Positions 295-62,073 of a stretch of 64,000 bases of DNA are shown piece after piece (positions within the stretch are counted from its first letter, which is position 1; every line of letters starts with the position of its first letter). This DNA is from a virus (taxonomy: Duplodnaviria; Caudoviricetes). The stretch covers positions 32,001 to 96,000 of IMG/VR virus record IMGVR_UViG_3300032038_000033. The stretch is one strand, 5' to 3'. A program made the translations under genes and the position numbers. The notes beneath the pieces were generated by a model, which was not told the origin of the DNA, ran no database searches, and saw only the letters and a list, made by a program, of their open reading frames with translations.

Positions 295-795
295 ATGATA
301 ACTATTAAAGAAAATAAAACTAATGAGATTTATGATGATTTATATAACTATGCTGATAGGTATAGATTTACTACAAGATGGACTAAGGATAATGTAGAAA
401 ATTATCTTATAAAAATAAAAAGAATGTATGCTTTATCTGATAAAGAACTTACTGATGTTATTAGTAAAGTAAATAAAGATTTTAAGCGTAAGAATAAAGT
501 CAAGAGTGACCCTTATGCAGAAACTTCTTACAAAACTGAAAAATTAAACATAAGAGAAAATCAATTAAATAAAGGTAGATATTGGGTTACTGATGATAAC
601 TACATTCCAATTCCTGAACAACCAGGTAATGGATATACTCAACTCGGAGCTATTCAAAGAGCACAGAGAGAAGCTGAACAATCAGCTAAATTATTTGGTA
701 AAAGATTTGGTGTTACAATACAAGACGCTGTAAAAGATTATCATATAATGGATAGTGACGGCAATATATGTCACGATTTAGATAATGCTATATAA
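295..795 (+). CDS. Tagged putative head-cargo protein (MITIKE; internal LNIRE)
   Basis: ATG 295 after AGAAAGGA RBS; N-terminal I-x-E tag. Confidence 0.6.
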   Translation: MITIKENKTNEIYDDLYNYADRYRFTTRWTKDNVENYLIKIKRMYALSDKELTDVISKVNKDFKRKNKVKSDPYAETSYKTEKLNIRENQLNKGRYWVTDDNYIPIPEQPGNGYTQLGAIQRAQREAEQSAKLFGKRFGVTIQDAVKDYHIMDSDGNICHDLDNAI

Positions 796-812
796 AGGAG
801 GTTTGATTAGCT

Positions 813-1229
813 ATGAAATTAAGAATTAAGGAATCCATAGATATTATGTCTTTACCTACAAGTGAAAGAGTTGAACTTATGATTAAATTCTGGAATGACC
901 CAAATGTAGTTGGTTCTTTATCTACAGAAAAAGCTATGAGATATTGGGAAAGAAAAGGATTTGACACTTCTAATTATACTTCAGAAGAGTTTAATCGTGT
1001 TTGGGATTTAGCACAAGATGAACTTGACGCAGGTGGTTATGTAGACGAAGAAGATGACTATGAAGAAGATGACTTTGAAGAAGAAATTGAAACCAAAGAA
1101 GATGCTTATAATTGGTTACAAGATAAATTAAGAGAATATGGAAATACATATCATTTTAATAATGAAGATAGATATAAGTTAGATAGGCTTATAGATAAAT
1201 TTGGTAATACTTATTTTTGGAATAGATAA
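813..1229 (+). CDS. Tagged acidic protein (MKLRIKE)
   Basis: Strong RBS; D/E tract; C-terminal module shared with 19668..20294. Confidence 0.7.
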   Translation: MKLRIKESIDIMSLPTSERVELMIKFWNDPNVVGSLSTEKAMRYWERKGFDTSNYTSEEFNRVWDLAQDELDAGGYVDEEDDYEEDDFEEEIETKEDAYNWLQDKLREYGNTYHFNNEDRYKLDRLIDKFGNTYFWNR

Positions 1230-1250
1230 TTGAAGAAAGGTTGATGATTT

Positions 1251-1532
1251 ATGAAATTAAGAATTAATGAAGATACAAGAACTAATGGTTATTATATGGT
1301 ATATTATGGAGGTACTTGGAATCACGGTTCTTATAGGTGTAACACACAAATGGAATTGCGTGAATTTTTATCTTCAAATATATTTGATAGAATTACTAAG
1401 ATAGAATATGTTGTTGATGAAACAAGTAAGTGGAAAGAATTTGCCAATGTATTATATCAAAATGTAGATAGAAATTCTATAAGTGATGAACAGTATGATA
1501 AATTGTTTAATAGAGGTATTGTTGCTAAATAA
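1251..1532 (+). CDS. Tagged small protein (MKLRINE)
   Basis: RBS; N-terminus resembles that of 43841..44347. Confidence 0.7.
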   Translation: MKLRINEDTRTNGYYMVYYGGTWNHGSYRCNTQMELREFLSSNIFDRITKIEYVVDETSKWKEFANVLYQNVDRNSISDEQYDKLFNRGIVAK

Positions 1533-1568
1533 ATAAATTTGGTAATACTTATTTTTATAATAGATAAT
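1533..1568 (+). repeat. Direct-repeat remnant of the 3' end of ORF 813..1229
   Basis: ATAAATTTGGTAATACTTATTTTT at 1195 and 1533; third related copy near 20265. Confidence 0.8.
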
Positions 1569-1591
1569 ATAATGAAAGGATTTAATTTACT

Positions 1592-59332: not shown

Positions 59333-59668
59333 ATGAGACACATTGAAGGAATTAAATATGAGTATTTTATTGTTTGTAGAATAAATTGTAAATATAAGTT
59401 TTTGTCCATAGCAAATAAAGACAATACAACATATACTCCAGGTCAATATTTCTTTGGAAATAATTATAATGAAGTTTTGGTTTTTAATACATCTGAAGAA
59501 GCAAATAATTTTAAAATAACAAATGATGGAGTTTTACAGTACACTCGAATTATTCTTGAAAAAGAAGGTTTTGGTGTAGGTGCATTTGAAATTGTTTCAG
59601 TTCCTCGTAAGGAATTGTTTGAATTGGAAAACTATATGTCAACTACTCACGAGGCTAAAGCCTTGTAG
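59333..59668 (+). CDS. Hypothetical protein whose 3' end is supplied by the IscB element
   Basis: Last about 10 codons lie in the element left end (GTCAAC 59638). Confidence 0.55.
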   Translation: MRHIEGIKYEYFIVCRINCKYKFLSIANKDNTTYTPGQYFFGNNYNEVLVFNTSEEANNFKITNDGVLQYTRIILEKEGFGVGAFEIVSVPRKELFELENYMSTTHEAKAL

Positions 59669-59912
59669 CTTGTAATAGGCTCAAATTGACTACCTTTAGT
59701 TCTATTTAGAACTACATTACTTTCGTTATTACACCTACAAATGATTCCCAAGTTTGTAGCAACTGTGAAGGCTCTGTAAACAGTTCTGTGGAGTAGGAAC
59801 AGTCAACCTTATGTGTTCGATTACGACAAGCGATTGTAATATTAGGGAAGGGAAACAAACTTTCATTTAGAAAGGGGTGCTACTTGCGAGTTGGCACTAA
59901 AAGGTATTACTT
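59638..59912 (+). ncRNA. omegaRNA scaffold of IscB element 2
   Basis: GTCAACTAC..GGCTAAAGCC..TTGACTA..ACTAC..ACACCTACAAATG..CCCAAGTTTGTAGC. Confidence 0.8.
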
Positions 59913-61193
59913 ATGAACAAAGGAAATAGAGTTTTTGTACTCAATATGAGAGGTAAATCTCTTATGCCTTGCACTCAAAGAAAAGCCAGAATACTTCTAA
60001 AAAAAGGAAAGGCAATTATCAAAAAGTATAATCCATTTACAATTCAGTTGACTTATGTAACTGGTGAAGCAAAACAAGATTGTAATATTGGCGTAGATAC
60101 TGGTGCAAAGCATATAGGTATTGCTATTACTTCTGGAGATAAAGTGCTTTATAAAGCAGAAATAGAATTAAGACAAGATATTAAGTCAAATCTTGACACA
60201 AAACGAATTTACCGTAGAAGTAGAAGAAATCGTAAAACAAGATACCGTAAACCACGTTTTCTTAATCGTAAAAGAACAGATAAATGGTTGCCTCCAAGTC
60301 TACAAACAAGAATTAACCATACATTCCGTTGGATAGATATATTTAATACTCTCTTACCTAATGCTATTTTACATATAGAAGTGGGTAAATTTGACACAGC
60401 AAAGATGATAAATCCTGAGATAAATGGTGTAGACTATCAACAGGGGCAAACATATGGTTTCTTTGATGAAAGATATTATGTATTTGCAAGAGATAATTAT
60501 ACTTGTCAAGTATGCAAGTGTAAAAATAAAATACTACGAACACATCATATAATTTATCGTAGTAATGGTGGTACTAATAGAGTAAATAATTTAATTACAG
60601 TTTGTACAGATTGTCATACATCGGAGAATCATAAAAAAGGTGGTATTTTATATAAATGGCAAAAAGAACATAAAAAAGTAAAACAATACAAAGAACCACC
60701 ATTTATGAATATACTTCGTAAAAGAATATTTACTCAATATCCGTCAGCAGTTATAACTTATGGTTCAGAAACAACGCCAAAACGAAAGCAAATGCAATTA
60801 GATAAGACACATTATAATGACGCTATTGTTATAAGTGGGATAAACACTATAAAAGAATGTCCTAATGAGTGGTTACTTATAAAGCAATTTCGTAAAAAGA
60901 AGCGTTCATTACACGAAGCAACTGCTCGTAAAGGTAGAAAAGAACCAAATAGAACACAGAAACGAAATAGTAAAAATACACCTTATTATAAAGGCTTCTA
61001 TTTGAATGATAGAGTGTTTACATTAGGAAAAGTAGGATATATAACAGGATTTACAAGTGGTGGTGTATATATAAAAAATCAAAAAGACGAATACATAACA
61101 TTACCTAACAAAACATATAAACAAGTAGGAATTGCTAATATAAGATTGATAAATCATAACAATAATTGGCAATATTTTAGTCAAGTTGGGTAA
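59913..61193 (+). CDS. iscB: RNA-guided endonuclease IscB
   Basis: SLMP, GVDTG, RRSRR, EVGKFD, HHI..NLITVCTDCH, HYNDA. Confidence 0.95.
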   Translation: MNKGNRVFVLNMRGKSLMPCTQRKARILLKKGKAIIKKYNPFTIQLTYVTGEAKQDCNIGVDTGAKHIGIAITSGDKVLYKAEIELRQDIKSNLDTKRIYRRSRRNRKTRYRKPRFLNRKRTDKWLPPSLQTRINHTFRWIDIFNTLLPNAILHIEVGKFDTAKMINPEINGVDYQQGQTYGFFDERYYVFARDNYTCQVCKCKNKILRTHHIIYRSNGGTNRVNNLITVCTDCHTSENHKKGGILYKWQKEHKKVKQYKEPPFMNILRKRIFTQYPSAVITYGSETTPKRKQMQLDKTHYNDAIVISGINTIKECPNEWLLIKQFRKKKRSLHEATARKGRKEPNRTQKRNSKNTPYYKGFYLNDRVFTLGKVGYITGFTSGGVYIKNQKDEYITLPNKTYKQVGIANIRLINHNNNWQYFSQVG

Positions 61194-61270
61194 AATCATT
61201 GGCAATTCATCCCACGAACCTAAAGGTTTGGAGATTTCTTGCCAGAACATTTTAAAGGAGATTGGGAAAA

Positions 61271-61609
61271 ATGATTGAAAACAAGGTAGAATTTGTAAAG
61301 AAGTTTGAGGCACTTTTAAAGGAAACAACATCTTTTGAAGATTTACACAGGCTCGATTATATAAAGGAAGATATAGAAATTCTTGTTATTACTTATAAGG
61401 ATGGTAGTCAGAAGAAACTTAATATTAACAATGATACTTGTTTTGGTATTATTGCAGACTTTTCTAATAAGGTTGATAGATGTAAATATATAGCTCTTGA
61501 AGATAGAATTACTGAATTTTTACCGAAAAGAAATACTCCAACATTTGACAAATTAATTACAAATGGTTTAGGTGCAGTCGCTTCTACAATAGCTAACTAT
61601 AATATATAA
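61271..61609 (+). CDS. Hypothetical protein
   Basis: AAGGAG RBS. Confidence 0.55.
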   Translation: MIENKVEFVKKFEALLKETTSFEDLHRLDYIKEDIEILVITYKDGSQKKLNINNDTCFGIIADFSNKVDRCKYIALEDRITEFLPKRNTPTFDKLITNGLGAVASTIANYNI

Positions 61610-61623
61610 AGGAAGAATTAGCT

Positions 61624-62073
61624 ATGATATTATACATTAGAGAATTTGCAGAAAGTAAGAAGGAAATAGAAAGAGAATTAAGTGCTGTTACAACTCCTAT
61701 TATTAGACATTTATTTAAACTTTATTGTTTACCTAATCATAGAAGTAGAAATCATTGGATAGCAGAAATTGCTAATTTTCTAAGTTCTGTTAAAAGACTT
61801 TCAGGTAAGAATAAATTTCCTAATAGGAATCAAATTATGGATTGGACTTACTATAAATGGGAAGACCTCTTAACCGATACTGAATTTATGAAGAGAGAAA
61901 TAGATACAATAGAGTTTAAGTATGGTGTAATTATAGATAAGTCTATTGATGATGTTTGTGAAACATTTAATGCTTTATGTTATGATTATTTTCTTTGGGT
62001 AGCCAATGAATTAAGTCAATACGGAAATATTGGTCACGGTTCCATATACAATAAATTAAATGAATTATTTTAA
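61624..62073 (+). CDS. Tagged DUF29-like protein (MILYIRE)
   Basis: II.HL.KL...P....RNHW..EI..F. Confidence 0.55.
   Translation: MILYIREFAESKKEIERELSAVTTPIIRHLFKLYCLPNHRSRNHWIAEIANFLSSVKRLSGKNKFPNRNQIMDWTYYKWEDLLTDTEFMKREIDTIEFKYGVIIDKSIDDVCETFNALCYDYFLWVANELSQYGNIGHGSIYNKLNELF

Follow-up and report, generated by a model that had tools for sequence, protein, structure and literature searches.

We analysed a window of 64,000 nucleotides, corresponding to bases 32001-96000 of a 104,460-base virus contig (called G000 below), in which many small proteins, mostly unrelated to each other, start with the same short peptide. This leader has the form M-(V/K)-(R/K)-L-x-I-(K/N/R)-E and a length of 5-9 residues. 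We conclude that it is probably a propeptide cut by the phage's own head protease, of the S77 family, and that the tagged proteins are most probably loaded into the capsid, trimmed and injected. An earlier reading of the window (the sequence-only reading) had proposed just such a portable leader, cut by the prohead protease and addressing a swappable cargo to the head, and this proposal was supported by the comparisons reported here, not by experiment. The contig has 27% guanine plus cytosine (G+C), nearly all its genes are on one strand, and its completeness was estimated at 58% by CheckV. The motif counts given below are based on a gene call of the whole contig, which gave 156 plus-strand genes.

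The 18 N-termini listed by the sequence-only reading were all found at their positions, and curation of G000 yielded about 24 tagged members, 16 of which meet a strict motif. The genes added to the list are one crossing the start of the window, six upstream of it (genome 27791-31775) and one at the 3′ end of the contig; an internal copy of the leader, at 2096-2113, was added as well. The strict motif, [LIV].I[KNR]E with its last residue no later than position 13, was observed 16 times, as compared to 0.5 expected from internal windows of the same proteins and 0.7 expected from shuffled N-termini (maximum 6 in 2000 shuffles), so that the tag is far more frequent than in composition-matched controls. 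With the relaxed motif [LIV].[LIV].E, 25 occurrences were found for 4.0-6.2 expected. The loose form [LI].E was enriched as well (47 versus 22-25), but only twofold; it is weak when taken alone, and a few of the listed members could be due to chance. Past the glutamate the proteins are mostly unrelated, as had been described, since almost no paralogy was detected by blastp. Clustering was also confirmed, with 14 adjacent tagged pairs for 3.6 expected. The reported richness in Asp, Glu and Tyr proved real, although modest (D+E 0.160 versus 0.143, p = 0.008; Tyr 0.080 versus 0.060, p = 0.001). Among 20 tagged G000 proteins searched against Pfam and PHROGs, none had a Pfam match over the cut-off or an informative PHROG, the only matches being phrog_30118, a family without known function, and sub-threshold noise; the absence of recognisable tagged enzymes on G000 thus held. 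Searches of the ESM Atlas with the tagged proteins at 43011 and 3010 gave no usable lead.

Could the shared start be an expression cassette, made of a strong ribosome site and A-rich first codons, in which the peptide itself has no function? The GAAAGGA ribosome site is indeed favoured by tagged genes, as the sequence-only reading had noted (12 of 24, versus 15 of 132 untagged genes, p = 5e-5), and the leader codons AAA, TTA, AGA, ATT and GAA are A/T-rich. However, the amino acids are kept through synonymous changes (TTA, CTA or CTT for Leu, ATT or ATA for Ile), and the length of the leader varies, from MIIRE to MVRKLMIKE. This variation of codons and length indicates that selection acts on the peptide. 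Moreover, as detailed below, the motif recurs at internal junctions beyond residue 40 and as far as 244 residues into the protein, its last residue (P1) covaries with the sites of the protease itself, and a relative of 42% G+C has a different fixed peptide. We therefore give the cassette a very slim chance.

Related viral contigs were gathered by a search with gene 1592 of the window (genes are designated here by their start in the window) and by a scan for the DNA of the leader itself. No cultured close relative was found in the phage collection by megablast of a 5.5-kb stretch of the window and tblastn of the 1592 protein, and a related-locus search with the tagged protein at 43011 gave no match. 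The closest relative found, G003 (66 kb, 27% G+C), is syntenic with G000, with 52 shared proteins of 53% mean identity, and has a gene row with leaders MKLRINE, MKIKIKE and MIIKE. G004 (198.5 kb, 86% complete) has 38 proteins in common with G000 and the same leader type. Two relatives are complete: G002 (128 kb, with terminal repeats), whose leaders read MLRVIIE, MITVLNE and MKINLSE, and G001 (183.6 kb, 42% G+C), which has 24 proteins in common with G000 and leaders MKRYIKS or MVRYIRA. Finally, G008 is a structural contig of 59 kb and 26.8% G+C, from the same sample as G003 and with the same dialect of the leader; the two have no gene overlap except insertion-sequence genes, and on this circumstantial evidence G008 is plausibly the structural half of a phage of the G003/G000 type.

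The Peptidase_S77 domain (PF03420, the family of T4 gp21) scored above the Pfam cut-off in G001, G002, G004, G008, G009 and G010 (27.8-51 bits) and in none of 14 control bacteria. The Glu-specific head protease that the sequence-only reading presupposed was not found on the 58%-complete G000 itself, and an S77 protease was present in every near-complete relative with tags (G001, G002, G004 and G010), in addition to G008. We infer that the leader is cleaved and that the protease gene lies in the missing part of the G000 genome. The G004 protease aligns to the T4 gp21 structure 5JBL (E = 2.5e-4), and the catalytic His (HPED, H74) and Ser (GVSSRG, S130) are invariant in 16 protease sequences. Each of these S77 proteases carries a coiled-coil, scaffold-like tail of about 350 residues, and is therefore regarded as a fusion of protease and scaffold, like herpesvirus UL26 (PMC4498786).

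The leader is assigned to this protease, rather than to translation or another enzyme, mainly because both change together. When motif enrichment was tested across the relatives, it proved dialect-specific in each genome. The dialect L-x-I-x-E is used by G000, G003, G004 and G008, and G002 also uses I-x-V-x-x-E. In G001, the dialect is K-R-Y-I-K-S/A (11 observed, 0.1 expected), and no Glu-type enrichment was found. We then compared 27 protease-scaffold proteins, 24 from loci not of the Ala type (8 of them with confirmed Glu-type tags nearby) and three from loci of the Ala type. The site placed right after the protease domain reads [VL]-x-E↓S in 23 of the 24 (the arrow marks the predicted cut; the exception is IHE↓G in L078) and I-[AS]-A↓S in the three loci of the Ala type; G001 has EIAA↓S. 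A second site about 15 residues further on follows the same dialect rule, with [FLI]-x-E↓S versus ICA↓S. Proteases of the Glu type start with MQVLIE...KLTE↓S or MKSQLVE...LRLVE↓S, which recalls the LIE-9 site of gp21 itself (PMC9026906). Switches were also seen at homologous residues in three ortholog pairs between G000 and G001: TIRE↓NY versus RIYS↓SY for gene 14778 (44% identity), TLLE↓S versus ...TPITS↓G for gene 16123 (45% identity), and TIKE↓KIS versus DIFS↓KVS for the cargo-domain gene described below.

The sequence-only reading had also proposed to check whether capsid, scaffold and protease propeptides end like the leader. This holds for the protease-scaffold junctions, which follow the dialect ([VL]-x-E in the Glu type), and is only suggestive for the capsid protein, where the site available is of the Ala type. 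The G001 capsid protein (phrog_138) starts with ...AITA↓GTSITA↓G, which agrees with the ends of leaders (RTITA↓G and RPITA↓G) found on cargo homologs from other Ala-type contigs, and is unlike the end of the cargo leader of G001 itself; the capsid N-terminus thus suggestively switches in step with the dialect. No specificity residues were called in the protease, the Ala-type proteases available for this comparison being just four sequences. One candidate, the Arg-to-Gln change in G-R-I-L-K-S (G004 and G002 versus G001), was dropped, as it is not kept in other Ala-type sequences. A predicted complex between the G008 protease domain and a 64-residue tagged protein of G008 had a score of 0.01, and was counted neither way.

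The tag might instead be the recognition sequence of some other enzyme or sorting machine, such as a radical S-adenosylmethionine (radical-SAM) maturase, or a secretion or degradation signal. A radical-SAM gene does lie within the tagged clusters of both G004 and L050, a contig presented below. Recognition by a radical-SAM enzyme was nevertheless rejected, since the complete tagged genome G002 is devoid of any radical-SAM gene. Those of G000 and G003 are placed among queuosine genes or beside the anaerobic ribonucleotide reductase, and are, judging from motifs and gene context, probably QueE-like and NrdG-like. As to secretion, the leader has no hydrophobic stretch of the signal-peptide type. 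Since, in addition, both the module boundary described next and the covariation with the protease point to the S77 enzyme, this is to us the least probable of the alternatives.

Gene 1592 encodes a mosaic protein of 435 residues: a G003 protein is matched by residues 10-280, a small tagged protein of G004 by residues 93-166, and a cargo domain of wide occurrence by residues 169-435, as if tagged genes that were once separate had been fused. Its C-terminal 261 residues are 78-84% identical in G002 and G001, which are otherwise distant phages. The cargo domain comes directly after the leader in G002 (MLRVIIE↓KISENDY) and after an internal leader in G000 (...DERLITIKE↓KISDNDY, cut predicted at 2113/2114), and is preceded by ...DDIFS↓KVSENDY in G001. 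It has 426 homologs, many of them on contigs of 120-313 kb, and belongs to the family phrog_30118. Junctions were examined in the best 120 of the 426 homologs, 110 of which have residues before the domain. Of these 110, 81 have Glu at P1, 15 have Ala or Ser and 7 have Val; at P3, 94 have I, L, V, M, Y or F. Wherever P1 is Ala or Ser (15 homologs), the N-terminus is of the RY[IL][KR] type. N-terminal extensions of more than 40 residues, and up to 244, were found in 56 homologs, 47 of which have Glu at P1. At these 47 internal joints P3 is always hydrophobic, and 36 of the 47 proteins also start with a leader, so that they look like polyproteins. Double sites were seen too (MRLTIKE↓FTCRTPYME↓K and MKLMIRE↓TPINE↓K). 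At P5, a hydrophobic residue was seen in 83% of N-terminal leaders versus 40% of internal joints. This tighter tag at the extreme N-terminus would fit an extra, targeting role, but is suggestive only, because the sequences share ancestry. In P0072, P0076, P0080, P0083, P0085, P0090 and P0092, the cargo domain is preceded by a third type of leader, MNLKLLMGRRKVQDV↓K; with Val or Ala at P1 after Q-D, it suggests another dialect or cleavage rule.

In a structure model of the cargo domain (predicted local distance difference test, pLDDT, 83), leader residues 1-5 are of low confidence and the fold begins at residue 8. Foldseek returned nothing from the PDB at E <= 0.001. With VIA-align, the best Z was 4.7, and about 35 of the top 42 rows had an ADP-ribosyltransferase fold. 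These weak but consistent matches are a lead for an ADP-ribosyltransferase-like fold. Invariant His, Tyr and Glu residues are present in the domain; the catalytic motif of ADP-ribosyltransferases is H-Y-E or R-S-E.

A further alternative holds that the shared start is a relic of descent, or of recombination at a hot spot, without any selection on the peptide; genes would be duplicated and replaced behind a 5′ end that stays fixed. It is favoured by the tandem clustering, by the mosaic gene 1592 and by the G003 orthologs that keep the tag. Yet orthologs alter residues while keeping the pattern (MRLRINE versus MKIKIKE, MKLKIPE versus MIKLTIPE), and the dialect is replaced wholesale when a cargo changes lineage, which requires selection for the local peptide. 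We regard a relic as very unlikely.

The position of tagged genes in the relatives, the presence of tagged enzymes among them, and the precedent of T4 are what lead us to infer capsid targeting and injection. In G002, tagged genes lie within the 20 kb between portal and protease (22.7-41.4 kb); those of G001 are found directly downstream of protease, scaffold and capsid; and G004 and G008 have one tagged cluster immediately upstream of terminase, portal and protease. In G002, three GIY-YIG genes and one HNH homing endonuclease gene have invaded the head module (42.6-51.1 kb; L049, L063); the capsid gene is split into at least 2 exons (~47978-48613 and 50535-51053), and the protease open reading frame may miss a first exon.

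Tagged enzymes were found in L050 and L051, two contigs with the same dialect as G000 and with genes resembling those of G004. The tag is carried there by an S-adenosylmethionine (S-AdoMet) lyase (52 bits), a GNAT protein, an SprT-like protein and a leucine-rich repeat protein; a radical-SAM enzyme and a UPF0227 protein located among these genes are untagged. The lyase (L050 17792-18463, L051 9963-10634) starts with the leader MRLQIRE or MKLQIRE followed by an N-terminal extension of about 55 residues. It is of the T3 SAMase family, an anti-restriction enzyme; if our conclusion is true, it would reach the cell already made, together with the DNA. Tagged proteins of another, small family, with the conserved core YPYEGYFWIIN, were observed behind differing leaders (MVLTE, MLIKE, MILKE) in several relatives (G004 180340-180780, G008 44675-45100, L050 10820-11239, L051 2072-2494), and perhaps at 16123-16545 of the window.

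The most serious alternative to injection accepts that the leader is a site for the prohead protease, and supposes that the tagged proteins are expendable core or scaffold-accessory parts that are cut up and then expelled at maturation, like T4 gp67 and gp68, or are processed outside the capsid. All the evidence linking leader and protease applies to it equally, tagged genes adjoin scaffold and protease genes in the relatives, and an acidic composition suits proteins that leave before DNA entry. Expendable parts of this sort are, on the other hand, difficult to reconcile with at least 24 mostly unrelated, fast-evolving, lineage-specific proteins per genome, some of them with enzyme domains, and with one cargo domain conserved at 77-84% identity across otherwise distant phages. 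We consider this alternative unlikely.

If injection is the right reading, the pathway would be as follows. The recognition site would consist of the last residues of the leader, with a hydrophobic P3, any P2 and Glu at P1. Proteins bearing the leader would enter the assembling prohead, where the leader would be removed after the Glu and internal hydrophobic-x-Glu joints, such as that at 2113/2114, would be cut too. The mature proteins would remain inside the head and pass into the cell along with the DNA, as ready host-takeover or anti-defence factors. Ribosome site and leader together would form a portable front end, behind which cargo modules would be swapped between phages. A bolder version, which we put forward only tentatively and find less likely than not to be right in full, is that no separate targeting receptor exists: the leader would dock in the active-site groove of the scaffold-fused protease, and being a substrate would be the address. 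A change of P1 would then re-code the whole cargo set, dialects would be incompatible, and each phage would carry some 25-50 swappable effectors, including self-cleaving polyproteins and pre-made anti-restriction enzymes, far above any phage studied.

Several points weigh against our main reading of the leader as a propeptide and of the tagged proteins as injected cargo. For these uncultured phages, cleavage and packaging are predictions from sequence comparison. Portal, capsid and protease genes were not found on the 58%-complete G000, where the tagged genes sit amid replication and nucleotide-metabolism genes, away from head genes; likewise, a second G004 cluster, at 55-67 kb, is about 100 kb from the head genes of that phage. 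The link of G008 to the G003/G000 type is drawn solely from the common sample, the G+C content, the dialect of the tag and gene sets that do not overlap. In an AT-rich proteome hydrophobic-x-Glu occurs often, and some of the listed members may be chance occurrences, about 4-6 being expected with the relaxed motif. Upstream of the genes, no promoter class (TATAAT variants, a T4-late-like box or -35 boxes) was found to set tagged apart from untagged genes. The tagged proteins are mildly acidic, and the internal proteins of T4 are basic. To our knowledge, a leader of 5-7 residues is below the length of any capsid targeting sequence shown to work.

The tagged genes of the window are listed in Table 1.

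Table 1. Tagged genes and related features of the window, with leader coordinates in brackets.
Position	Strand	Leader or element	Remarks
1..275	+	MKLKIPE	3′ portion of a tagged gene whose start lies 225 bases ahead of the window; G003 ortholog 83% identical, leader MIKLTIPE
295..795	+	MITIKE (295-312)	Internal KLNIRE at residue 83; no Pfam/PHROG family
813..1229	+	MKLRIKE (813-833)	G003 ortholog has leader MKLRINE; C-terminal domain common with gene 19668
1251..1532	+	MKLRINE (1251-1271)	G003 ortholog 91% identical, same leader
1592..2899	+	MKLQIKE (1592-1612)	Polyprotein-like: acidic N-terminal module, internal leader, cargo domain
2096..2113	+	LITIKE	Internal leader at module junction of gene 1592, predicted internal protease site
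2114-2896	+		Conserved cargo domain of gene 1592
3010..3660	+	MKLTIKE (3010-3030)	No family
14778..15263	+	MYVKLTIRE (14778-14804)
16123..16545	+	MITLLE (16123-16140)	Atypical leader
19149..19556	+	MVKRLRLNE (19149-19175)
19668..20294	+	MVRKLMIKE (19668-19694)	C-terminal domain common with gene 813
42173..42568	+	MIIRE (42173-42187)	Short leader; short forms MIIRE and MIIKE also in G003 and G008
43011..43820	+	MVTIKE (43011-43028)	No family
43841..44347	+	MKLRINE (43841-43861)
44365..44727	+	MVRLIKE (44365-44385)
44770..45345	+	MAINQYKNNKRKIIRE (44770-44817)	Possible member, long leader
51681..52100	+	MVKKLKLRE (51681-51707)	Same form (MVKKLRIRE) in G008 and L059
52230..52328	+	MVRKYNKNRNLRE	Doubtful member; 32-codon open reading frame with perfect ribosome site
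54397..54759	+	MIIIKE (54397-54414)
61624..62073	+	MILYIRE (61624-61644)	Possible member; off-consensus, without ortholog support

Membership is not equally firm for all rows. Gene 16123, which is off-consensus, was kept because its G001 ortholog has the site of the other dialect at the homologous place. Gene 44770 is a weaker member because its motif ends at residue 16 (I-R-E at residues 14-16). The frame at 52230 (region 52230-52483), which starts with MVRK...NLRE and is followed by a stop and by short frames in other phases, is possibly a decayed tagged gene.

Among the other genes of G000, motifs point to a helicase of the DnaB type, with some 40% identity to its counterparts in Clostridium phages, and to a DNA polymerase that is split and bears a family A signature, together with clamp-loader genes and a beta-clamp. 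They also point to genes of the queuosine type, ThyX, a ligase and an anaerobic ribonucleotide reductase. At 26399-27646 and 59913-61193, the window encodes a pair of paralogs (415 and 426 residues, 41% identity); their starts read MVVYVLDIEGKPLMP and MNKGNRVFVLNMRGKSLMP. A 468-residue protein (window 35068-36474) is 43% identical to a protein placed after an IS607 TnpA-like gene in G008. A pair of IS607 TnpA-like and TnpB-like genes is present near the 3′ end of G000 (genome 96280-98377, L003); similar pairs were found in G008 and G004, and one precedes a cargo gene in L005.

If the tagged proteins are indeed injected, about one sixth of the genes of this phage group would encode proteins delivered ready-made with the DNA, an arsenal far above that of T4 and readable from sequence through a tag of 5-9 residues. 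The tag would provide a simple rule to list candidate injected proteins in uncultured phages, many of which may be anti-defence or takeover proteins of unknown family. The dialects offer natural pairs for the study of P1 choice in proteases of the gp21 and assemblin types, and the leader suggests that foreign proteins could be loaded into phage heads by means of very short tags.

Three known systems can be compared with this one. In T4, the capsid targeting sequence has 10-19 residues, is cut by gp21 after L/I-x-E, and is sufficient to package foreign proteins (PMC9026906, PMC3012670). As with IPI, IPII, IPIII and Alt of T4, a short N-terminal leader ending in hydrophobic-x-Glu is here found on unrelated proteins, a protease of the gp21 family S77 is encoded, in this case in the relatives, and the cargo varies, evolves fast and in part resembles anti-defence factors. 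Alt, an ADP-ribosyltransferase packaged in the T4 head, is processed by gp21; one cargo here may, according to its model, have the same fold. The differences are nonetheless considerable. The T4 leader, MKTYQEFIAE, looks unlike the one described here, which has 5-9 residues instead of 10-19, and about 24 tagged genes were counted on a 104-kb fragment, compared to the handful known in T4. Some of the cargo is polyprotein-like, with internal joints, and the cargo is mildly acidic. The phage itself differs from T4 by its split polymerase with a family A signature, its DnaB-type helicase, and its beta-clamp and loader. Finally, in contrast to T4, the protease is fused to a scaffold-like domain in the relatives, and sister lineages use Ala or Ser at P1.

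In phiKZ, 201phi2-1 and SPN3US, propeptides on proteins of the head and the inner body are cut by gp175 or gp245 at S/A/G-x-E, these propeptides are thought to direct proteins to the prohead, and paralogs share N-termini (PMC9026906, PMC5694885). There too, many head-internal and ejection proteins are cut after Glu by an enzyme distantly homologous to gp21. Propeptides of the phiKZ type are, however, mostly longer than 100 residues, with a small P3 (S, A or G); far fewer proteins, 8 to about 19, are processed, and no single short leader is found on dozens of unrelated proteins.

Herpesvirus assemblin (UL26) is fused to the scaffold, with sites for release and for maturation, and the sites known for pseudorabies virus are YLQA-T and VQA-S (PMC4498786). 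As in assemblin, the protease is N-terminal to the scaffold in one polypeptide, and a conserved site directly follows the protease domain. The site of the Ala-type sisters, Y-I/V-K/R-A/S followed by S or A, resembles the two pseudorabies virus sites. By contrast, herpesviruses are not known to use their site as a portable leader for many unrelated cargo proteins, and the lineage of the window is predicted to cut after Glu. Our literature search returned no paper on the literal leader strings or on such a system. On these comparisons, the system is best described as a greatly expanded, very short form of the T4 capsid-targeting system in phages that are not of the T4 type.

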